Below, one piece after another: positions 4,012 to 19,552 of a DNA stretch of 64,000 nt. The translations under genes were made by a program, and so were the position numbers. Source of the stretch: a virus. Its lineage: Duplodnaviria; Heunggongvirae; Uroviricota; Caudoviricetes. Each line of letters starts with the position of its first letter. Position 1 is the first letter of the stretch. The notes under the pieces were generated by a model. It searched no databases. It was not told the origin of the DNA and saw nothing but the letters and a program-made list of their open reading frames with translations. The stretch lies in the IMG/VR virus record IMGVR_UViG_647533160_000003, one strand, 5' to 3'.

Positions 4012-7000
4012 ATGACCCAAGTCGCGAAGAAAATTCTGGTGACGTGCGCGCTGCCGTACGCTAACGGCTCAATCCACCTCGGCCATATGCTGGAGCACAT
4101 CCAGGCTGATGTCTGGGTTCGTTACCAGCGAATGCGCGGCCACGAGGTTAATTTCATCTGTGCCGACGATGCCCACGGTACGCCGATCATGCTGAAAGCA
4201 CAGCAGCTTGGTATCACACCGGAGCAGATGATTGGCGAAATGAGTCAGGAACACCAGACTGATTTCGCAGGCTTTAACATCAGCTATGACAACTATCACT
4301 CGACGCACAGCGAAGAGAACCGCCAGCTGTCTGAGCTTATCTATACTCGCCTGAAAGAGAACGGTTTTATTAAAAACCGCACCATCTCTCAGCTGTACGA
4401 TCCGGAAAAAGGCATGTTCCTGCCGGATCGTTTTGTAAAAGGCACCTGCCCGAAATGTAAAGCACCTGATCAATATGGCGATAACTGTGAAGTCTGCGGC
4501 GCAACATATAGCCCGACTGAATTGATCGAACCGAAATCGGTGGTTTCTGGCGCTACGCCGGTAATGCGTGATTCTGAACACTTCTTCTTTGATCTGCCCT
4601 CTTTCAGCGAAATGTTGCAGGCATGGACCCGCAGCGGCGCGTTGCAGGAGCAGGTGGCAAACAAAATGCAGGAGTGGTTTGAATCTGGTCTGCAACAGTG
4701 GGATATCTCCCGCGACGCACCTTACTTCGGTTTTGAAATTCCGAACGCGCCGGGTAAATATTTCTACGTCTGGCTGGACGCACCGATTGGCTATATGGGC
4801 TCTTTCAAGAATCTGTGTGATAAGCGCGGCGACAGCGTAAGCTTCGATGAATACTGGAAGAAAGATTCCACCGCCGAGCTGTATCACTTCATCGGTAAAG
4901 ATATCGTTTACTTCCACAGCCTGTTCTGGCCAGCAATGCTGGAAGGCAGCAACTTCCGCAAGCCGACCAACCTGTTTGTTCACGGCTATGTGACAGTGAA
5001 CGGCGCGAAGATGTCCAAGTCTCGCGGCACCTTTATTAAAGCCAGCACCTGGCTGAATCATTTTGACGCCGACAGCCTGCGCTACTACTACACCGCCAAA
5101 CTGTCTTCGCGCATTGATGATATCGATCTCAACCTGGAGGATTTCGTTCAGCGCGTGAATGCCGATATTGTTAACAAAGTGGTTAACCTGGCCTCCCGTA
5201 ATGCAGGCTTTATCAACAAGCGTTTTGACGGCGTGCTGGCAAGCGAACTGGCTGACCCGCAACTGTACAAAACCTTTACTGATGCCGCTGAAGTGATTGG
5301 CGAAGCATGGGAAAGCCGCGAATTTGGTAAAGCTATCCGTGAAATCATGGCATTGGCTGACCTGGCTAACCGCTATGTCGATGAACAGGCTCCGTGGGTG
5401 GTGGCGAAGCAGGAAGGTCGCGATGCAGATCTGCAGGCGATTTGCTCTATGGGCATTAACCTGTTCCGCGTGCTGATGACGTACCTGAAACCGGTACTGC
5501 CAAAACTGACTGAACGTGCAGAGGCATTCCTCAATACGGAACTGACCTGGGATGGTATCCAGCAACCGCTGTTGGGCCATAAAGTGAATCCGTTCAAAGC
5601 TCTGTATAACCGTATCGATATGAAGCAGGTTGAAGCACTGGTGGAAGCGTCTAAAGAAGAAGTCAAAGCCGCTGCCGCACCGGTAACTGGCCCGCTGGCA
5701 GACGATCCGATTCAGGAAACCATCACCTTTGACGACTTCGCCAAAGTTGACCTGCGCGTGGCACTGATTGAAAACGCGGAGTTTGTCGAAGGNNNNNNNN
5801 NNNNNNNNNNNNNNNNNNNNNNNNNNNNNNNNNNNNNNNNNNNNNNNNNNNNNNNNNNNNNNNNNNNNNNNNNNNNNNNNNNNNNNNNNNNNNNNNNNNN
5901 NNNNNNNNNNNNNNNNNNNNNNNNNNNNNNNNNNNNNNNNNNNNNNNNNNNNNNNNNNNNNNNNNNNNNNNNNNNNNNNNNNNNNNNNNNNNNNNNNNNN
6001 NNNNNNNNNNNNNNNNNNNNNNNNNNNNNNNNNNNNNNNNNNNNNNNNNNNNNNNNNNNNNNNNNNNNNNNNNNNNNNNNNNNNNNNNNNNNNNNNNNNN
6101 NNNNNNNNNNNNNNNNNNNNNNNNNNNNNNNNNNNNNNNNNNNNNNNNNNNNNNNNNNNNNNNNNNNNNNNNNNNNNNNNNNNNNNNNNNNNNNNNNNNN
6201 NNNNNNNNNNNNNNNNNNNNNNNNNNNNNNNNNNNNNNNNNNNNNNNNNNNNNNNNNNNNNNNNNNNNNNNNNNNNNNNNNNNNNNNNNNNNNNNNNNNN
6301 NNNNNNNNNNNNNNNNNNNNNNNNNNNNNNNNNNNNNNNNNNNNNNNNNNNNNNNNNNNNNNNNNNNNNNNNNNNNNNNNNNNNNNNNNNNNNNNNNNNN
6401 NNNNNNNNNNNNNNNNNNNNNNNNNNNNNNNNNNNNNNNNNNNNNNNNNNNNNNNNNNNNNNNNNNNNNNNNNNNNNNNNNNNNNNNNNNNNNNNNNNNN
6501 NNNNNNNNNNNNNNNNNNNNNNNNNNNNNNNNNNNNNNNNNNNNNNNNNNNNNNNNNNNNNNNNNNNNNNNNNNNNNNNNNNNNNNNNNNNNNNNNNNNN
6601 NNNNNNNNNNNNNNNNNNNNNNNNNNNNNNNNNNNNNNNNNNNNNNNNNNNNNNNNNNNNNNNNNNNNNNNNNNNNNNNNNNNNNNNNNNNNNNNNNNNN
6701 NNNGCTGTTGGGCCATAAAAGTGAATCCGTTCAAAGCTCTGTATAACCGTATCGATATGAAGCAGGTTGAAGCACTGGTGGAAGCGTCTAAAGAAGAAGT
6801 CAAAGCCGCTGCCGCACCGGTAACTGGCCCGCTGGCAGACGATCCGATTCAGGAAACCATCACCTTTGACGACTTCGCCAAAGTTGACCTGCGCGTGGCA
6901 CTGATTGAAAACGCGGAGTTTGTCGAAGGTTCTGACAAACTGCTGCGCCTGACACTGGATCTCGGCGGAGAAAAACGTAATGTCTTCTCAGGCATTCGTT

Positions 7001-7182
7001 CCGCTTATCCAGATCCACAGGCACTGATTGGTCGTCACACCATTATGGTGGCTAACCTGGCTCCGCGTAAGATGCGCTTCGGTATCTCTGAAGGCATGGT
7101 GATGGCTGCTGGCCCCGGCGGGAAAGATATCTTCCTGTTAAGCCCGGATGCCGGTGCTAAACCTGGCCACCAGGTTAAGTAA
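4012..7182 (+). CDS. metG: Methionyl-tRNA synthetase MetG, interrupted by assembly gap (N-terminal catalytic part 4012-5792; C-terminal tRNA-binding part 6704-7182)
   Basis: ATG at 4012 ([29 protein letters not shown], class I HIGH motif), 'KMSKS' at ~5010; C-terminal tRNA-binding domain after gap; gap plus duplicated flank makes true length and frame uncertain. Confidence 0.85.
5568..5792. repeat. Left copy of ~225-bp direct duplication flanking the N-gap
   Basis: Sequence gctgttgggccataaagtgaatccg...gagtttgtcgaagg is repeated at 6704-6929 with one extra A (ataaaagtg). Confidence 0.95.
5793..6703. other. Assembly gap (911 N) inside metG
   Basis: Contiguous run of n characters. Confidence 1.
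6704..6929. repeat. Right copy of duplication flanking the N-gap (1-nt indel relative to left copy)
   Basis: Direct comparison with 5568-5792. Confidence 0.95.
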
Positions 7183-11332: not shown

Positions 11333-11815
11333 ATGAATTTTATCGCTACTGTAAACGCACCCGCACATGGCAATATCGCTGTAACGTTCTCTGACATTGA
11401 AAAACGAGTACTTGGTGCATGGCGCGACAATGAGACGGTAGAACTGTCAGCACAAGAAAAATGCATTATTGCACGCGACATCATTGGCAATCGTCGTTAC
11501 TCGCGGGTATTTGAGAAAGCGTATGTGGTAAATTCTGGATTCGGAACGTTCGTCTTTCCGGTGCGCTCCGGGCGATTCTGCCAGTCCAAGCTGATTGAGT
11601 TCGCTACGCAGATTTCTGTCTGGATTAAAACTCAATCGTCGTTCAAATTTTCCGACGATGAAGCAGTATCGCAGGGGATGCGGATCGCCAACAATGCAAT
11701 TAAATGCAAAAACATTACGTATACCGCTGGCGTTGATACATGGAAACTGTTTTGCGCTAACTTTATGCTGAATGTATACGCAAGCAACCGCATCCACATC
11801 CTTGATGGCGTGTAA
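11333..11815 (+). CDS. Hypothetical protein (160 aa)
   Basis: ATG 21 nt after palindrome 11300-11312, AAGGA RBS; followed by hairpin 11825-11846. Confidence 0.55.
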   Translation: MNFIATVNAPAHGNIAVTFSDIEKRVLGAWRDNETVELSAQEKCIIARDIIGNRRYSRVFEKAYVVNSGFGTFVFPVRSGRFCQSKLIEFATQISVWIKTQSSFKFSDDEAVSQGMRIANNAIKCKNITYTAGVDTWKLFCANFMLNVYASNRIHILDGV

Positions 11816-11824
11816 CTGAGAAGA

Positions 11825-11846
11825 GGGCCAGAAACGGCCCTTTCTC
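11825..11846 (+). terminator. Terminator hairpin after early gene cluster
   Basis: gggccagaaacggccc + TTTCTCT. Confidence 0.55.
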
Positions 11847-11869
11847 TATAGCCACCAGCTGCCGCAGGG

Positions 11870-11950
11870 AAATTTTCAGAAACGGCGAGGAACGTATTCA
11901 TGAGCCGACGGGAAACGGCTAGGATTTTTTCGGGAAACGGCTACATTTGC
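11870..11950. repeat. Second cluster of GGGAAACGGCT iteron-like repeats
   Basis: cagaaacggcgagg, gggaaacggctagg, gggaaacggctaca. Confidence 0.6.
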
Positions 11951-12067
11951 CTTTATGTAGAAAAACATCGGGAAGTTGGTTGAATCCAACCAGCGGTTGT
12001 CGGACAGGCGAGCGGGGAAATCATGATGACTTTCGTCGCCTGAGACATCCAGATTTCTTTCGTAGCG

Positions 12068-12109
12068 TAATCACATACGTGATTAAGTGGTGTGATTATG
12101 TGAAAAATC
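12068..12109. promoter_or_regulatory. Pair of inverted repeats with GTGATT/AATCAC half-sites (operator-like)
   Basis: aatcacatacgtgatt and gtgattatgtgaaaaatcac. Confidence 0.45.
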
Positions 12110-12429
12110 ACGCGCACATAATACGCGAGCGGATACGGAACAAAACAAAATGCCGATCCGCGCCGACAAATAAACGCGGATCACATAGCAAGACTAAAAG
12201 CCAATGATTAACTATGCGCTATAGCGCAATATAACGCGTTTTAAGCGCGTTAATGCGTTAAGTAATGGGTATGTACTGGCAAGGATATAAAAGCGCGTCT
12301 ATGGCGTTATTTTGGCGCTTATTGTTATGTTGTTGGAGTGAGTTAAAGACAATAAAAAACGCGCCAATGATGGCGCGTTATGGTGGAAGTATTGGAAACG
12401 AAAAAAGCGCCCATAGTGGGCGCTCGATT

Positions 12430-12660
12430 TTATTTATGTAAACTGATTTCAAATCCCATTTCTACAAACGCTTTTAACATTAAAAAAATATCAGCGTCGT
12501 TCACGTCTGCTTTTTTTCGCTCCTGGTCGCTCAATAAGTCAATTTTGCGCGTCGTTTCATCTATAAGCTCGACCGCGCGCCCAGCGTAACCAGCGATCCC
12601 AGCGATGCGATTAACATAATATTCATTATGGACGTTAACGCCAGCGATAAGAACAAACAT
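12430..12660 (-). CDS. Hypothetical small protein (76 aa)
   Basis: Minus-strand ORF in AT-rich cassette; flanked by repeated hairpin. Confidence 0.4.
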   Translation of the reverse strand: MFVLIAGVNVHNEYYVNRIAGIAGYAGRAVELIDETTRKIDLLSDQERKKADVNDADIFLMLKAFVEMGFEISLHK

Positions 12661-12681
12661 GATTAAGCTCCTTAAAAAAAA

Positions 12682-12930
12682 TTAAATAGAATTTTGAAGT
12701 TTTCCGATTAATGCGCTTAAACGTAAGTATTCACGTTTGCGCTTGCAATCTCGCTTGCTGTTAAGCAAATCAGAAAACGTAAAATTTAATTGGTCGCGTT
12801 GCGCGATCAAATCATCGATTAATTCCAGTTTATAAGCGCGATACTTTGCGCGATATTCTGCGCGGATCTTGTCATAGCTGACCATCTTTAAAGCTCCTTT
12901 AAAGCGCCCACTATGGGCGCTTAATTCCAT
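12682..12930 (-). CDS. Hypothetical small protein (82 aa), basic, possibly nucleic-acid binding
   Basis: Minus-strand ORF; Lys/Arg-rich; flanked by repeated hairpins. Confidence 0.4.
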   Translation of the reverse strand: MELSAHSGRFKGALKMVSYDKIRAEYRAKYRAYKLELIDDLIAQRDQLNFTFSDLLNSKRDCKRKREYLRLSALIGKLQNSI

Positions 12931-12933
12931 TAA

Positions 12934-13584
12934 TTACGCTTTGAAAGCGTCAGCTAGATAATTGTAGAAATCATTTTTAATGAAGCGATATTGCTGAGTA
13001 CCAGCTTTTGCGCTCCCAGCTCCTTTGACTTTCTCAACAAGTCCGAGACGTTCGCAAAGATTGATCAACTGGTTGGCTTGAGTATAGCCAGCGTCCAATT
13101 TAATTTCGCACGCTTTTTTAGCTTCATTCATTAAATCGAAAACAGCGCCATTAGTGAACGTGTCGATCTCGTCGTTAATCATATCGATTAAAGCGAATAC
13201 ACGAGATCCTGACATATCAGCGACGGAATAAACGCATTTACCAGCTTTAATGGATTTAACCAGATAAACCAGTTTTTCCAGTGAATAACTATTAGTCATT
13301 GCATCACGGAAAAATACTTCTGGCGCTTGTTTGCTTGCTTTAATCGCATAGTAGAAAACAGAGCATAATTTTTCGTCTTCTACTGCGTTTACGACGTTGT
13401 TGATGAAGTAAGCAAGTTTAGTGGTCGCAGCTTGCATATTTGCTTTGTCTGCTTTAGTGTGCGTACCATTTTTATAATGTTCGTTATATGTTTGAGTTGC
13501 CAGATCTGCTTTTTCGCGCAGCTCGTCGGATACAATGGAAGCAGCTTCAATGATGGTTTTTTTAGAAATGATAATGTTAGCCAT
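12934..13584 (-). CDS. Hypothetical protein (216 aa)
   Basis: Minus-strand ORF with AT-rich upstream region 13590-13840. Confidence 0.5.
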   Translation of the reverse strand: MANIIISKKTIIEAASIVSDELREKADLATQTYNEHYKNGTHTKADKANMQAATTKLAYFINNVVNAVEDEKLCSVFYYAIKASKQAPEVFFRDAMTNSYSLEKLVYLVKSIKAGKCVYSVADMSGSRVFALIDMINDEIDTFTNGAVFDLMNEAKKACEIKLDAGYTQANQLINLCERLGLVEKVKGAGSAKAGTQQYRFIKNDFYNYLADAFKA

Positions 13585-13846
13585 GATTTTATTCCTTAGT
13601 ATAAATATTAAAATTTAACTCAAGAAAGAAAGTGTTTTGCATTCGTTCCTGATGCGTTCAATTATCGATGCGCGAAAAAAGATTGCAAGTGTTTTTTTAA
13701 AATTTTTTGCAGGGATGAAAGTCCTAGAAATAAAAGCTAGATCGTCGAAGGTGTTCCCTAAATAAATAATAAATTCCGGCTTTTGACCTTATATATTTAT
13801 ACGGGGGAGAATTGAATGAGTGTTAAACGAATGGCATGTAAAATAA

Positions 13847-13866
13847 TAACCGGACTTAGCCGGTTA
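13847..13866 (-). terminator. Terminator hairpin for minus-strand operon 13882-15503
   Basis: taaccggacttagccggtta; T-run on minus strand. Confidence 0.55.
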
Positions 13867-13881
13867 TTACCCTTATAGAAA

Positions 13882-14403
13882 TTAAAACGGAAGGATTCGT
13901 TCAACCCAATCGAAGAAAATAAGTATTTTTCTACCGTCTTCCAACTTAAGTGTGACTAGACAGGCGTCAACGCCATCTGACTTTCCCTCAATTTCGCGAC
14001 CGTCTGCCATGTAGACCCTTATAGATTTGCCGTTTTGGTAAGCCTGACGACATATCTTAAAAAAGTCACGACGTGATGGCTGATTAACCATCTGTTCATT
14101 GTTTAGCGTTAGTCGACCTGTGAATGAAGTGTCAACCTCTTCTATGCCCGACTCAATTGTGCTAATGCGCTCAAGAGGGAGCCTTATACGATTTGTGTTG
14201 CTAAGCGGATCTGGTGTGAGGTTCAGCTTATTTCTTGCGCTCAATAGCCCGTAGACATACATGCAAAACACTTGGCCGTCTTCGAGAGTGACTCTTACAG
14301 GAAATTGAGCACTCCGCCAGAAGAGCAAGGTGCGTTCAGCATGTTCGTAGTTTCGCGGCCATACTTCAGCCGGTATGCCGTAGGTGATGTCCAATGTTCT
14401 CAT
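13882..14403 (-). CDS. Hypothetical protein (173 aa)
   Basis: Minus-strand ORF overlapping upstream gene by 4 nt (operon). Confidence 0.5.
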   Translation of the reverse strand: MRTLDITYGIPAEVWPRNYEHAERTLLFWRSAQFPVRVTLEDGQVFCMYVYGLLSARNKLNLTPDPLSNTNRIRLPLERISTIESGIEEVDTSFTGRLTLNNEQMVNQPSRRDFFKICRQAYQNGKSIRVYMADGREIEGKSDGVDACLVTLKLEDGRKILIFFDWVERILPF

Positions 14404-15014
14404 TCTGATACTCTTAGAGGTGTTTTCAGCAATCCAAATTTAAATTCTTTGTTACCAACGACCAAGAAGGGGACTTCAACATAGATTTTTTTATCGACGG
14501 ATTTAGAGTTCGCTGTTTTCTTGATGTCGCGAACGATACGTTTTGTTGTGTTTTCATCAATAAACAATACCTTCCCACTGGTATTCCCTTCAGTCTTAGC
14601 ATAAGTGACAATAGGTTCTTCATTGCCAACTCTGATGTTCACTTGGCAACCCGTTGTAGCCATTTCATCACAATAGAGTGTACCGTCTTGAATTTCTAAA
14701 ACAATTCCAGATGGCTTCATGGCCTCGTTAGAGCTTACATTAGCGTTTTCTGGTACTGCGGTCCCGTTAATTTGCAACCGTAATCTTTCTTTTCCTGCAT
14801 GAAGTATTGTTTCTTCTGCGTTATCTGAGAATCTATACCAGACTGGTTGAATCAGACCTCGTGATTTGTATTTTAGTACGTCTTCAGAAGTATACATGCT
14901 GTACGTTTTTTGCATGTCAGAGACGAAATCTGATAATGCGTTGGCGGAAAACGCCGGGAGGCATATACAAGCAAGGAGTAACGAAAGTTTCATTTTCATA
15001 TCATGATAAACCAA
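14400..15014 (-). CDS. Secreted/periplasmic hypothetical protein with signal peptide (probable start at 14999, MKMKLSLLLACICLPAFSANA)
   Basis: N-terminal hydrophobic signal sequence with A-x-A cleavage-like site; tightly packed in 3-gene operon. Confidence 0.55.
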   Translation of the reverse strand: MVYHDMKMKLSLLLACICLPAFSANALSDFVSDMQKTYSMYTSEDVLKYKSRGLIQPVWYRFSDNAEETILHAGKERLRLQINGTAVPENANVSSNEAMKPSGIVLEIQDGTLYCDEMATTGCQVNIRVGNEEPIVTYAKTEGNTSGKVLFIDENTTKRIVRDIKKTANSKSVDKKIYVEVPFLVVGNKEFKFGLLKTPLRVSE

Positions 15015-15503
15015 TTATTTAACATCACACTTTCTAAGTTTTTCTATTTGTTCTAATTTTTCATGATCATCATTTAGATTTCCTTTGACTATCTCCGTTT
15101 CAAGTTTGCTGATTAGCATGTTAAGTGCGTTGTAGTTATTGCATTTTACTTTGTAGGCGTAGTATGACCTTGTCCCTGGTTTTTGTACGCCCATATCATT
15201 AAAGTTAGAGCTTAAAGTATAACCTTCAAGTTCAACCCCTTTTATTGTTGGAAGAATTATATTTAATGGTTCTAATTTAAATGGGTAGATATAAATATGT
15301 GATATGAAGTACTCTTCTGAAGAGATTTTCTTCATGTCTTTTGTGATTGAAACTGAATATTTACAGTCCCGAGTGATATAAAATTTTGTACATTTGTACG
15401 GCACTAAGTTGAATAGATAATATTTGTCTTTAAAAAGAACATCTTTTCCATGTGATATTTTATGTCGTAAAGAGTTAATTATTTTGTTTATAGAAATACT
15501 CAT
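15015..15503 (-). CDS. Hypothetical protein (162 aa), very AT-rich codon usage
   Basis: Minus-strand ORF; K/I/N/Y-rich; first gene of 3-gene operon. Confidence 0.45.
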   Translation of the reverse strand: MSISINKIINSLRHKISHGKDVLFKDKYYLFNLVPYKCTKFYITRDCKYSVSITKDMKKISSEEYFISHIYIYPFKLEPLNIILPTIKGVELEGYTLSSNFNDMGVQKPGTRSYYAYKVKCNNYNALNMLISKLETEIVKGNLNDDHEKLEQIEKLRKCDVK

Positions 15504-15648
15504 CTACAGTATCCGACCTTAGTTATCAATTGAAAAGCCTACAAATATCGTTCAGCCAATCAAGAAATTTTTTCAGCCGGAGGTGTGTACTTCAAAAAAT
15601 GTGATGAATGTCACATGCAGGTGCTCTCATACACCTGCATGTAGACTA

Positions 15649-16248
15649 TTAATCATTCAATAATCTATATTTTCTTTTGATTAAATCTTCACCTTTTTTG
15701 GTGAACACAAAACCAAATTGCGATTTTTTGTTTAGACGAAGGACTCTGTTATCCAACGCATCGGTTGATGGAATCAATGTTTGATCATCTATCCAATTAA
15801 GTAGCGTAAGAAAGTTCAGCAGCCTCAACGTTGTTGTGCGAAGCTCTTTCGATATATTTTCAATGCTGGCAATTCGTCTTTCTTTTTTCTCAGGTGGTAC
15901 AGATAATTGTTCTTGAGGTTTCGTGGATAGATAATCAATTTCGTTTGCTGCATCGAATGATATGTGTGGCGTAATTTTGCTAAAAAAGCCTTTCGCTGAC
16001 TCACTTGATAATAAACCAGACCTATTCATATCGTTTGTTATTCTGTACAGGAGTGGACTGTGTTTCATTTCAGGATAACGTTGATAAAAGTTAAGCAATT
16101 CAAAAGCAGCATTAGCGCCAACAAGAAAATCAGAAGGATCGCTGACTTTCCAGAAAGAATGATTTTTCTTAGCGCCAGTGGTGTCAACAAATGATAATTC
16201 TTTTAACCAACTCATGATGTGCTCCTTTCTAACAAGTGAGCACATCAT
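15649..16248 (-). CDS. Hypothetical protein (probable start 16215, MSWLKEL...)
   Basis: Minus-strand ORF; hairpin terminator at 15618-15645 downstream. Confidence 0.45.
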   Translation of the reverse strand: MMCSLVRKEHIMSWLKELSFVDTTGAKKNHSFWKVSDPSDFLVGANAAFELLNFYQRYPEMKHSPLLYRITNDMNRSGLLSSESAKGFFSKITPHISFDAANEIDYLSTKPQEQLSVPPEKKERRIASIENISKELRTTTLRLLNFLTLLNWIDDQTLIPSTDALDNRVLRLNKKSQFGFVFTKKGEDLIKRKYRLLND

Positions 16249-16280
16249 AGAATTAGTAGATAGGGGGTAAATATGAAATG

Positions 16281-16559
16281 TTACGGCAACCTGCTCAGTA
16301 TTTCCTCTAAATCTTTTTTTGTCATATTGGAGTTTTCATAGATGCGCATGATTTTCTCACGCGTCTTAGCGGAAACCCCAACGGCAGATGTGACTTTGTC
16401 AAATTCAGCCATAGTCATCGTCTCCAGAATGGCATTGATAACTTCAGCCTTAGACATCTTGATTTTTTTCTCTTTGAGTTTTATTTGAAATTTTCCAAGT
16501 TTTTCATTGGCCTTATCAGACAATGCCACTTGGCAATAAGTTGTTTTTTTTTCGCTCAT
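16281..16559 (-). CDS. Small hypothetical protein (92 aa), possible DNA-binding regulator
   Basis: ORF immediately downstream of the helicase gene; Lys-rich; weak RHH-like pattern (inference). Confidence 0.4.
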   Translation of the reverse strand: MSEKKTTYCQVALSDKANEKLGKFQIKLKEKKIKMSKAEVINAILETMTMAEFDKVTSAVGVSAKTREKIMRIYENSNMTKKDLEEILSRLP

Positions 16560-16561
16560 AA

Positions 16562-18121
16562 CTAATCTCGTTTCAGAATTCCAAAATCGAATGCGCCATC
16601 AATAGGCAATACACCTTCCGCAAAGCCAGGTGTGGTGTCGATGATGTGTTTTCGCTCATAAGAGTGAGACAACAGGTATTTGTTGCTAGTGTCAATGAAA
16701 TCAGTGATAAAACACACGTTTGCCTGATTCTTCTTGGCTCGTAAGCCACGACCGACACGCTGCCTCATTTCAACTTCTGCTTTCCCACCACCAGCAAGAA
16801 TGACCGCACCAACGCTTGGCACATCAACACCGACATCCAGAATAGTCGAGCCTATTAAAACATCTATTTCTCCAGACGCTAAACTGTTCAGCTTTGCTTG
16901 CCTTGTCGCCTGGTTAGATTCCCCATAGATGAAGTCAACTCTAAGGCCTGACTCCTTCATCATCTCCATCAGGATTTGCCCGTGGCGTTTAAGACGAACT
17001 AGAGTCATACAATTGAGAGAATGTTGCTTATAGAGCAATGCTTCGCGAACAATGGCCTCATTACGTCCCAAATTATACACGATCCCCAACTGATAAGCCT
17101 TTTGGTAGGCAGTGCTCATACCTACTCTAAAATTGAGATGTTTATTGGCAAGTTCTGCCTTGATTCTGACCTCGTCTGGCTTGTAGGCAACTTTATGATA
17201 AAGGAAGTACGGTTTTGCCAGAATGCCTCGATCAATCAGGTACTTTTCTGTGACTTTAATTTCAATTCGCCCGGCCACAGCCATCAGACGCATGTTGGCT
17301 TCTGTAGAATCCTTCATGAACGGCGTGGCCGTAAGCGCCAGACGATAGTCTGCGTTCACACATAATCTGGCAATTTCATAGAAATTAGAACCTGAAGACT
17401 CATGCGCCTCTTCCAGAATAAGCAGAGACACACTTGAAAGGAAGCGTTTCACCAAGTCCCGACGTTTGAGGTGGTAGCTCTTCTTATCTGGAGTTGCATC
17501 GCGTGGTGGTTCTTCAAGGAAACTTGCCAGAGTTTGAACTGTAGCGACGTTGATATGTCGTGATACCTGGAACTCACCCGAGCCAATGACTCCAACCTTT
17601 TGGTCTTTTAACCACGGTTCGCCATTTTTGGCGCGGTAGTCGATGGATCTCTGGAAGTTTTCAGCCATTTGAAACATCAGAACAGAGCGGGTTGTTAAAA
17701 ATAATGTCATTCGACCGATACGTGCAGCTGCTTTGCAGGCAACGTTAGATTTCCCACCACCAGTAGCGATCTGGGCAATCATCATTCCCTCTCGAACTAG
17801 TGTTTCCACAGTCTGATCCTGATACGCATAATCAGGATTGTATGGGAATGGGTTAACCGCCGGATTTGGTTTACCAAGCGCCGGGGCTTTGTCTTTGCGG
17901 ATATGAACACATTTGATGCCCGCCTTGTTCAAGTTCGCCGCTACAGGCTTGGCAAAGCCAGCAGGGAACGAGTTTTTACTCCAGTTGAACATCGTGCTTG
18001 TGCCCTTCCAGTCGCCAGTCTCGACTTCGTAGCTCAACATTTGCTGCACCAGTTGCTTTACCTTGTCATCTGCGCCAGAAATAAGCGCATTTACTGCGTT
18101 AGATACAATCCGAACAGTCAT
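16562..18121 (-). CDS. Superfamily-2 DEAD/DEAH-box helicase
   Basis: Walker A 'IATGGGKS', DEAH-like 'LILEEAHE', motif III 'LALTATP', C-terminal helicase domain motifs (QRVGRGLR). Confidence 0.8.
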   Translation of the reverse strand: MTVRIVSNAVNALISGADDKVKQLVQQMLSYEVETGDWKGTSTMFNWSKNSFPAGFAKPVAANLNKAGIKCVHIRKDKAPALGKPNPAVNPFPYNPDYAYQDQTVETLVREGMMIAQIATGGGKSNVACKAAARIGRMTLFLTTRSVLMFQMAENFQRSIDYRAKNGEPWLKDQKVGVIGSGEFQVSRHINVATVQTLASFLEEPPRDATPDKKSYHLKRRDLVKRFLSSVSLLILEEAHESSGSNFYEIARLCVNADYRLALTATPFMKDSTEANMRLMAVAGRIEIKVTEKYLIDRGILAKPYFLYHKVAYKPDEVRIKAELANKHLNFRVGMSTAYQKAYQLGIVYNLGRNEAIVREALLYKQHSLNCMTLVRLKRHGQILMEMMKESGLRVDFIYGESNQATRQAKLNSLASGEIDVLIGSTILDVGVDVPSVGAVILAGGGKAEVEMRQRVGRGLRAKKNQANVCFITDFIDTSNKYLLSHSYERKHIIDTTPGFAEGVLPIDGAFDFGILKRD

Positions 18122-18203
18122 AAACCTCTTTCCTTAGTGCCTTTTGTATGTTATTTGGCTATTATAATAAGTAAGTGATTACTTAGCGGATTGTAGCAAT
18201 AAA

Positions 18204-18884
18204 ATGGATGTAAAAATCACGATTTTGCAGGTTGATGTTGCCAACCTTCGCCCGAATACCTGGAACACCAATTCGGTTGGTGCGCAGAATTTTGAAAAAC
18301 TGAAAGGTTCTATCGAAAAATTGGGCTTTTTTAAGCCAATTTTGGCTCGTGAACTTGAAGATGGATTTTTTGAAATCCTCGGCGGCGAACATCGCTGGCG
18401 TGCCGCTATTGAGCAAGGAATTTCAACGGTTCCAGTGCTTTCTGTGGGCAAAATTAGCGATGTCGTAGCTAAACAGATGTCACTGGTGGACAACGAGCGA
18501 TACGGTGAAGACGACCAAATCGCATTGCAACGCTTCATTGAAGAAATTCAGTCAGAACTTGACTATCAACTGTCTGAAATCGCCCCGTATGACGACGAAA
18601 TCTCGATGGTTTTAGCAAAAGAGGCGGCAATCGACCTTGAAGCACTGGAGGCGTTGTCTCGTGGTAGTGATGAGCCTGTCGATACCGACAAACGAGAGAA
18701 AACCGAACGTGTGGGTGCGGAACATCAGACCATGCGCTTCAAAGTAACTTTCGATGCGTCAGATCGTGTTGCAGAAACCATAAAAAACATCATCAAAGAG
18801 CAGGCTATTAACACCGGTAATGAAATGGAGAACGCTGGTGAGGCTCTGGTGTGGCTGGTCGACTACTACAAGGAGCGTATGTAA
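18204..18884 (+). CDS. ParB/Srx-like nuclease-domain protein
   Basis: N-terminal ParB-type motif 'EILGGEHRWRAA'; acidic C-terminus. Confidence 0.65.
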   Translation: MDVKITILQVDVANLRPNTWNTNSVGAQNFEKLKGSIEKLGFFKPILARELEDGFFEILGGEHRWRAAIEQGISTVPVLSVGKISDVVAKQMSLVDNERYGEDDQIALQRFIEEIQSELDYQLSEIAPYDDEISMVLAKEAAIDLEALEALSRGSDEPVDTDKREKTERVGAEHQTMRFKVTFDASDRVAETIKNIIKEQAINTGNEMENAGEALVWLVDYYKERM

Positions 18885-19552
18885 TGACCAAAAAGTTTGA
18901 AATCGTATATCGCGACCCGGCAGATCTTATTCCCTATGAGATGAATGCCAAAAAGCATGATGAACAGCAGATCCGAGATCTGGCCGCAGCCATTAAAAAG
19001 CGTGGATTTGACCAGCCAATTACGGTCGATAAGAACGACGTAATTATTACTGGCCACGGCCGCCGTGAGGCTGCAATTTTTGCTGGACTTGAGCGCGTAC
19101 CGGTTATTGTTCGCGATGATCTCAGTGATGACGAGGTTCGTGCGAAGCGCCTTGAAGATAACCGACTTGCCAGCATTGATTACGATGCAATTAAGCTACA
19201 GAAAGAGCTTGAGTCGCTTGTTCTGGACGATATCGAGGTTTTCGGCTTTGAAGAGCGTGAGTTGAATGTTCTCGTTGGCAGTATGACAGAAGAAATGGAC
19301 ACCGATTCGCTAGTTATCGATCTTGGCGAAGAAACTAAACGACAGAAGGATGAACACACCGAGATCAGTCGTGAAGTTGCAGCGGAAGAAGTACGTGTTG
19401 TCGACGTATTGGGCTTTAAAACGCTCCCTGCTGGCTCTGCCATTGTTGTTGGTGATTTGCTTGCCCACATGGAAGAAATGACGGGAGAAAGCGGGGTAGA
19501 CGCATTTGTGGCATATGCGGAGAAGATCTCTTCCGGGGAGATGGCTGCATGA
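18884..19552 (+). CDS. Second ParB/Srx-like nuclease-domain protein
   Basis: ATG overlapping upstream stop (TAATG); motif 'IITGHGRREAA'. Confidence 0.65.
   Translation: MTKKFEIVYRDPADLIPYEMNAKKHDEQQIRDLAAAIKKRGFDQPITVDKNDVIITGHGRREAAIFAGLERVPVIVRDDLSDDEVRAKRLEDNRLASIDYDAIKLQKELESLVLDDIEVFGFEERELNVLVGSMTEEMDTDSLVIDLGEETKRQKDEHTEISREVAAEEVRVVDVLGFKTLPAGSAIVVGDLLAHMEEMTGESGVDAFVAYAEKISSGEMAA

Follow-up and report, generated by a model that had tools for sequence, protein, structure and literature searches.

A variable cargo slot between conserved genes beside the helicase gene of an SSU5/pHCM2-type phage-plasmid of Escherichia coli

The DNA analysed here, hereafter the window, is a stretch of 64,000 nucleotides (nt) from the virus record IMGVR_UViG_647533160_000003, which by sequence comparison is identified as an SSU5/pHCM2-type phage-plasmid of Escherichia coli. 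Within the window a block of eight consecutive open reading frames (ORFs) at 12430-16559, all on the minus strand as are the other genes and signals of the window described below at 12405-18121, had been proposed in a first-pass annotation to be a single accessory cassette next to a helicase gene and a candidate for an undescribed system. The eight ORFs are indeed present, and comparison with related loci divides them into two components, namely a backbone of five genes, and an accessory part that is limited to 14400-16248 and consists of just three genes, g199, g162 and g204sp. The explanation that we favour, and to which we assign a probability of roughly 0.7, is a composite one in which a conserved backbone and regulatory block is combined with a slot for cargo resembling the 'morons' of prophages, the cargo being probably envelope-directed and attached to a regulator of the FljA type. 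Temperate elements are well known to have morons and cargo hotspots of this kind; this particular slot, its bias towards exported proteins and the g162 family are absent from the literature searched.

The element was assigned to the SSU5/pHCM2 type because the region 12000-19000 of the window is 95-98% identical to many E. coli plasmids of ~110 kb, for example NC_018651.1 of the O104:H4 strain 2009EL-2050, and is matched at the same level by the phages CMS-2020a, PhiR41_1 and Cyrano and at 80% identity by Salmonella phage SSU5. In annotated relatives the genes occur in the order helicase, 92-amino acid (aa) gene, variable part, 'repressor of phase-1 flagellin / transcriptional regulator', 216-aa gene and small genes. 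The superfamily 2 (SF2; DEAD/ResIII) helicase gene at 16562-18121, which adjoins the block as the first-pass annotation had stated, is present in every relative and was used both as the anchor of the backbone and as the bait with which relatives were fetched. It was found in 233 of 5,426 complete E. coli genomes and is plasmid-borne in all of these. SSU5/pHCM2-type phage-plasmids are common in clinical Enterobacteriaceae and are, according to the literature, abundant in S. Typhi and S. sonnei.

The division of the block was established with 86 related loci fetched through the helicase and with a tblastn comparison of all proteins that covered 89 loci. The helicase, the FljA homologue, the 216-aa gene g216 and a flanking ParB-like gene were present in essentially every locus with enough flanking sequence, down to a helicase identity of 71%. 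The 92-aa gene g92 (16281-16559; phrog_1466, a family without assigned function), which starts 2 nt after the helicase stop codon and lies in the helicase unit, went undetected in five of the loci and in the most distant clade, that with a helicase identity of ~71%, while a 67-aa and a 76-aa gene recur across clades, yet are variably present or allelic. It is these five, g92, the FljA-family gene, g216 and the 67-aa and 76-aa genes, that make up the backbone. The first-pass annotation had held that conservation as core genes in all relatives would speak against a cassette, and such conservation was observed for part of the block, as g92, the FljA-family gene and g216 occur in nearly all of the ~80 relatives. 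The eight genes are moreover not gained or lost together, and the three cargo genes assort independently of one another: in the helicase-fetched loci g199 was found 24 times, g204sp 14 times and g162 eight times, with g162 never occurring without g204sp, and with g204sp and g199 each occurring without the others. Among the complete E. coli genomes g199 was present in 87 of the 233 with the helicase, the g162-g204sp segment in 81 and both in 35, none of them chromosomal. Large protein searches returned no context for the three genes outside this locus, to which they are confined in this plasmid family.

The slot that receives the cargo is the interval between g92 and the FljA-family gene. Across 80 loci its length varies from 115 to 2943 nt and 18 gene arrangements are represented; seven slots are empty, and 73 of the 80 contain a gene for an exported protein or lipoprotein, usually adjacent to the FljA-family gene. 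The commonest occupant is a lipoprotein of 140-154 aa, designated LipoA (SSU5, Y. pestis, Kluyvera), and the other exported products are g204sp, a signal-peptide protein of 118-124 aa (SP124) and a 266-aa lipoprotein encoded on the opposite strand (LipoB266), the cytoplasmic ones being g199, g162, F14, F23 and a 377-aa HNH protein. The borders of the slot are conserved; they consist of the start of the FljA-family gene and, at the opposite end, of a hairpin that follows g92. In the window this hairpin, GATGTGCTC...GAGCACATC, is located at 16216-16246 just downstream of g92, and the ribosome-binding site and ATG of g199 lie in and beside its 3′ arm. In the majority of the arrangements examined g92 is followed by stem arms related to GATGTGCTC/GAGCACATC, and in one clade this extends to empty slots; a different hairpin stands after g92 in SSU5 and in the emptiest distant clade. 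Slot content is exchanged between elements that are otherwise 98-99% identical, and in the five relatives that share the cargo arrangement of the window the flanks are 96-100% identical, with nucleotide identities of 96-100% for the helicase gene, g92, g199 and g162, and of 81-98% for g204sp. A second and smaller variable site occurs directly after the FljA-family gene, where ~300 extra nt encode a signal-peptide protein of ~95-99 aa; among the related loci, which are numbered with the prefix L, it was seen in L015, in the 596-599-nt spacers between the FljA-family gene and g216 of L013, L014, L032 and others, and in L094 (8344-8643), the product of which has a weak 'ValRS_modifier' Pfam match in its record.

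The three cargo genes are narrow orphans, the families of which are limited, in large protein searches, to enterobacterial phage-plasmids. The gene g199 (15649-16248; phrog_13473) encodes an accessory protein that is predicted to be cytoplasmic and likely to comprise 188 aa from a start at 16215; it forms 10 clusters among 5.8 billion proteins, has an unchanged position in each of the eight contexts shown and has a ratio of nonsynonymous to synonymous substitution rates (dN/dS) of 0.46. The second orphan, g162 (15015-15503), has a GC content of only 29% and is represented by three clusters among the same 5.8 billion proteins and by two representatives among 1.84 billion. Together with F14, F23 and P0028 it constitutes one diversified family, found in relatives at the same position of the slot. 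The sub-families match one another with hhalign probabilities of 83-95%, and family members are full-length across genera at 57% identity with a dN/dS of 0.4. In several RefSeq plasmids the annotation pipeline PGAP calls g162 as a 106-aa product from an internal start; we favour the 162-aa form because protein-level conservation, down to 57% identity, extends over the first 56 codons. The third gene, g204sp (14400-15014, with a likely start at 14999 or 14993), encodes an accessory protein with a Sec signal peptide and two invariant cysteines. The signal peptide had been noted in the first-pass annotation, and its cleavage region, ...FSANA|LSD, proved to be conserved in homologues whereas the cysteine of an 'LLAC' motif is not, so that the product is predicted to be a substrate of Sec and signal peptidase I (SPase I) that is exported and is not a lipoprotein. 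In the large protein search g204sp forms 14 clusters. Its mature part is modelled with medium quality (predicted local distance difference test, pLDDT, of 62) as a beta-sandwich that matches generic beta-sandwiches only; a Foldseek search of the PDB with this model gave no significant match, and the resemblance to IalB (invasion-associated protein B, PDB 3dtd) is one of fold only, with 11% identity and no Pfam match. The reading frames of the cargo genes are preserved in homologues from Citrobacter, Klebsiella and Salmonella that are 46-57% identical, and dN/dS values of 0.14-0.46 for the three genes indicate purifying selection. The possibility that these are spurious ORFs was rejected on account of their conservation across genera and of dN/dS values below 1.

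In the composite explanation the stretch would belong to the leftward helicase transcription unit of the phage-plasmid and form its distal part, and the interval between g92 and the FljA-family gene would be a hotspot of recombination with the behaviour of a prophage moron slot, here filled with g199, g162 and g204sp. The cargo would be expressed from the resident plasmid-prophage and may act at the cell envelope, either in lysogenic conversion or in superinfection exclusion, an envelope role being the most likely one because of the prevalence of exported-protein and lipoprotein genes among the slot variants and their usual position next to the FljA-family gene. Proteins of the g162 family might then serve as a diversified cytoplasmic partner. 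Suitable systems for comparison are the morons of lambdoid phages and the accessory hotspots of P2/P4 and P1. As with prophage morons, the slot lies between conserved genes, differs between near-identical genomes, is of lower GC content, is bounded by hairpins and encodes small products without virion or replication roles; unlike them, it has no dedicated promoter that could be detected, the cargo seeming to ride on the unit that runs from the helicase to the FljA-family gene, and no cargo protein matches a known conversion, exclusion or defence protein. Envelope proteins responsible for superinfection exclusion, such as Llp of T5, Cor of phi80 and N15, SieA of P22 and Imm and Sp of T4, are small, exported or lipoproteins, made by prophages and highly variable between related phages. 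The slot resembles these in that it nearly always carries an exported-protein or lipoprotein gene (LipoA, LipoB266, SP124 or g204sp), although g204sp, in contrast to the Llp and Cor type, lacks a conserved lipobox cysteine and has no sequence, profile or fold match to exclusion proteins. In the literature searched we found no description of this slot, of its exported-protein bias or of the g162 family in SSU5-type elements. A fixed site of exchange beside the helicase gene, of which the usual cargo is an exported protein together with a member of a diversified orphan family, offers a defined target for searches for genes of conversion, exclusion or defence.

The FljA-family gene (13882-14403), a highly allelic backbone gene, is the single member of the block in which a functional family could be recognised. 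The first-pass annotation had listed all eight genes as unknown and without recognisable structural or replication motifs, a description that holds for the seven with products that match only PHROG families without function, and not for this one, which is a full-length member of Flag1_repress (Pfam PF03614; E 2.3e-68, 229.8 bits against a cut-off of 24), its residues 5-170 covering profile positions 1-170 of 170. The protein is 36% identical over 168 aa (E 7e-35) to the product of the gene that follows the flagellin gene on the Salmonella Senftenberg linear plasmid NZ_CP039272.1, and it is of similar length to FljA (173 as compared to 174 aa) and has the same invariant motifs, D.TYG, S.RDFF and DWV.RI. 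FljA-like regulators block translation of fliC mRNA (PMC2652032), and those borne on plasmids repress chromosomal fliC post-transcriptionally (PMC2652032; PMC1876496). On this evidence it is possible, if on the whole unlikely, that the homologue is the gene of biological importance and shuts off translation of host fliC, that lysogens are non-flagellated, and that the exported proteins are co-expressed conversion factors, the benefit being protection from flagellotropic phages, evasion of innate immunity or a saving of energy.

The distribution of the homologue argues against such a role. It is encoded on 832 plasmids of at least eight genera (822 at a coverage of at least 80%), of which 342 are from Klebsiella, 92 from Enterobacter, 62 from Yersinia and 60 from Salmonella, and the gene is intact in the Klebsiella and Yersinia plasmids as well as in Shigella. 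Klebsiella, Y. pestis and Shigella have no working flagella, and retention of the homologue in plasmids of non-flagellated hosts therefore argues that host flagellin is not its only, or not its main, target. Neither the window region nor any of the 80 slot variants contains a flagellin gene that would complete an operon of the fljB-fljA type, and the genes upstream of the FljA-family gene there encode exported proteins or orphans. The allelic diversity of the gene is likewise unexpected if its target were one conserved host leader: among E. coli elements with helicases at least 98% identical, the FljA-like proteins are 67-98% identical, as against 95-99.5% for g216 and 99.6-100% for ParB. Synonymous divergence (dS) of the gene amounts to 0.6-1.3 compared to 0.03-0.15 in the flanks, with a dN/dS of 0.2-0.3, which indicates old alleles moved by recombination rather than fast evolution, and two islands of divergence, codons ~20-110 of this gene and the g216 leader, stand in a region that is otherwise 93-100% identical. 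The homologue thus resembles FljA of Salmonella fljBA and of the linear plasmid pBSSB1 in its full-length PF03614 match, its length and its invariant motifs, but differs in having no linkage to flagellin or to a hin-type switch and in being a strongly allelic core gene of phage-plasmids, also in non-flagellated hosts, which makes a flagellin-repressor homologue in such a position a puzzle in its own right. The literature searched contained no study of the function of the FljA homologue and none that ties SSU5-type plasmids to motility. A mimic of the fliC leader was not found in the window, the best match being 12 nt exact to the E. coli leader, TGAGCCGACGGG, at 11901-11912 on the plus strand (E 0.28), which is compatible with chance; these 12 nt sit in a terminator-like hairpin after a 160-aa plus-strand gene. 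Residues 116-167 of the homologue have a chance-level likeness (E 0.55) to archaeal Sm/Hfq-like proteins (2qtx, 5dy9), and the protein appears to consist of two similar halves, which together with that likeness would fit an RNA-binding fold.

In the composite explanation the FljA-family protein would, by homology, act as a repressor at the post-transcriptional level and prevent a target mRNA from being translated. Its retention in plasmids of non-flagellated hosts (Klebsiella, Y. pestis, Shigella) leads us to propose an mRNA of the element itself as its main target, for which the leader of g216 is the candidate, with host fliC as a possible additional target in motile hosts. The 216-aa backbone gene g216 (12934-13584; phrog_1513) is 48-100% identical in relatives with a dN/dS of 0.02-0.07 and has no match in Pfam or the PDB. 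It is preceded by a sigma-70-like promoter at 13661-13688 (TTGCAA, 16 nt, GATAAT) that is conserved among relatives, and by a predicted leader of ~70 nt (13585-13656) the 5′ end of which has an imperfect inverted repeat (13656-13634). Nucleotide identity of the leader within the E. coli clade is 60-71% as compared to 93-100% in the promoter and coding sequence, and the type of leader changes with the allele of the FljA-family gene while the promoter between them stays 93-98% identical. The leader motif of the window is single-copy in the window, and the translation-initiation region of g216 is the most fliC-like of 66 genes, although at 25 of 53 positions the likeness is weak. The putative action of FljA on the g216 leader is accordingly offered as a hypothesis and not as a finding, the link being weak. 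A more far-reaching scheme, which we consider distinctly improbable, would make FljA the specificity part of an RNA-level switch in which each allele blocks g216 mRNA through a matching leader in an immunity-like fashion; its logic would be like that of immI of P1 and P7, the FljA protein would later have been borrowed by flagellar phase-variation loci, and the slot upstream would be the place that puts exported exclusion factors under the same control.

Several results weigh against the composite explanation and have to be set beside those that favour it. The role of each cargo gene is a proposal; Pfam, NCBIfam and PDB sequence searches of the proteins without assigned function returned nothing beyond FljA, the cargo being without Pfam, NCBIfam or PADLOC matches, and the AlphaFold2 (AF2) model of g162 is unusable (pLDDT 47) and too poor to search. 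Expression of the cargo from the prophage state is an assumption, because promoter-like sites do not exceed the number expected by chance (15 as compared to 15.6). As to the regulatory link, most FljA classes across all clades (55-81% mutual identity) have one leader element, ATCGAAAGCGAACACGCTAACGAT, in common, and only the FljA class of the window and distant clades have leaders that differ from it, so that very few events underlie the co-variation of FljA and leader. A distance of ~230 nt separates the two features and plain linkage could therefore explain the pattern, and the g216 leader shows no significant RNA structure (z -0.45).

One slot variant raises another interpretation of the g162 family. 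In L023 (slot 816-1949) and L099 (6708-7841) g162 gives way to a protein of 377 aa that carries an HNH nuclease domain at its C terminus (Pfam E 3e-6). The N-terminal ~185 aa of this protein align weakly with the g162/F14/F23 family at hhalign probabilities of 41-54% (E 1e-4) and share the motif GYSFSFK...L..FI, and one relative of the family may be fused to an HNH nuclease. The g162 family, and perhaps the slot itself, could on this basis be the leftovers of a selfish insertion of the homing-endonuclease type, the 377-aa variant having kept its nuclease while the versions of 160-200 aa would be decayed or domesticated and of no benefit to host or phage. The alignment, the common motif, the shared slot position and the very AT-rich, extremely orphan character of g162 are in its favour. 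The HNH homology is however below conventional significance, full-length ORFs at 57% identity across genera with a dN/dS of 0.4 speak against it, and the exported-protein gene that consistently follows would not be explained by a decaying selfish gene, and we regard this interpretation as very unlikely.

As to composition and transcription signals, the block is, as had been claimed, of low GC content, with 37.7% as compared to 46.2% for the window, and it is the most AT-rich 4.1 kb, in the bottom 0.2% of sliding windows. The per-gene values are uneven, with g162 lowest (see above), g199 at 36%, g204sp at 39% and the FljA-family gene at 46%, equal to the genome. Hairpins resembling intrinsic terminators are enriched, with 14 found as compared to 5.6 +/- 2.6 expected, the majority being in a convergent zone at 11900-12430. 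The claim that the block has its own hairpin terminators was upheld in part, as two hairpins have the appearance of intrinsic terminators, one after the 76-aa gene (12425-12405) and one after the FljA-family gene (13868-13845), while those after g92 and g199, which flank g199, have no adjacent T-run, and a promoter and terminator proper to the cargo were not clearly seen. The hairpin after g199, CATGCAGGTG-N8-CACCTGCATG at 15614-15641, was read from the sequence and missed by the terminator scan, and no promoter-like site was found in the 145-nt gap before g162. The translational coupling claimed for 13882-15503 was confirmed, the g162 stop codon (15017-15015) abutting the next ORF and the g204sp stop overlapping the start of the FljA-family gene as ATGA (14403-14400). 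The terminator-like hairpin after the FljA-family gene, which with the ATTTT that follows its stem-loop AATAACCGG-CTAAGT-CCGGTTATT spans 13841-13868, was likewise read from the sequence. It is kept across allele classes of the FljA-family gene and probably terminates the leftward unit that runs from the helicase to this gene, and together with the g216 promoter it separates the two genes. The block thus holds at least three transcription units, split by hairpins and a promoter, and Rfam gave no match in 11500-18300.

The profile and defence-system scans that had been proposed for each of the proteins recovered the FljA family only and nothing specific in PADLOC. With PADLOC-DB v2 there was no match for seven of the eight proteins, g199 having a chance-level match to SspC (E 0.007, 12 bits), and among the slot relatives F14 and F23 had none while the 377-aa protein matched generic HNH models only. 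That the eight genes form one accessory cassette encoding an undescribed defence or anti-defence system, as the low GC content, the lack of an annotated function for seven of the eight products, the closeness of the adjoining SF2 helicase to defence helicases such as PbeA among its PADLOC matches and the HNH-domain protein in one slot variant could be taken to suggest, is extremely improbable, since five of the genes are backbone, the three accessory ones assort independently, no PADLOC model matches any of the eight or F14 and F23, there are several transcription units and the helicase itself is a core gene in every relative. The proposed unit does not exist, and the claim of accessory cargo beside the helicase stands only in the form of an AT-rich, variable cargo slot that is limited to three of the eight genes.

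The analysis also corrects a number of annotations, among them the truncated call of g162. The 67-aa gene (12682-12885; phrog_6145) had been called as an over-extended ORF of 82 aa (12682-12930); the shorter call, the start of which is preceded by AAAGGAG, is supported by phrog_6145 covering residues 16-82 only, by a PGAP call of 204 nt and by a hairpin inside the false extension. In SSU5 (SSU5_119) and in phrog_6145 its product goes under the name 'MIT family metal ion transporter CorA', a propagated misannotation, since a soluble protein of 67 aa could not form a CorA channel. The gene is missing or replaced in some relatives and is absent in L027. The 76-aa gene (12430-12660; phrog_1585) has allelic variants in relatives, of which that in L011 is divergent (46-66% nucleotide identity), while the adjoining g216 is nearly identical in L011 and L027. 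One 90% cluster lists both the 76-aa and the 67-aa protein, the sequences of which are unrelated, and this may reflect a fused or mis-called member. The hairpin between g216 and the 67-aa gene, AGCGCCCA-TAG-TGGGCGCT at 12903-12921, and the intrinsic terminator at 12405-12425, which ends the unit of g216 and the 67-aa and 76-aa genes and begins the convergent terminator zone, have a near-identical GC-rich stem (AGCGCCCA/TGGGCGCT) with inverted loops.

Elsewhere in the window a run of 911 N (masked sequence) occupies 5793-6703 and accounts for the GC content of 15% in the bin 6001-7000. By comparison with a close relative, NZ_JBLWMF010000003.1, the run falls inside a plasmid-borne metG (methionine--tRNA ligase) at ~4288-7181 on the plus strand, and the PGAP annotation of a 96-97% identical plasmid likewise indicates that the phage-plasmid carries metG (methionyl-tRNA synthetase). 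The masked sequence may be an insertion or duplication, because ~225 nt of NZ_JBLWMF010000003.1 align to both of its sides. Among the related loci, L007 and L009 derive from metagenome-assembled genomes labelled 'Candidatus Fimivivens' and 'Bacillota bacterium', the contigs of which carry the helicase at 81% and 92% identity in the same gene order and are probably mis-binned sequence of enterobacterial phage-plasmids.

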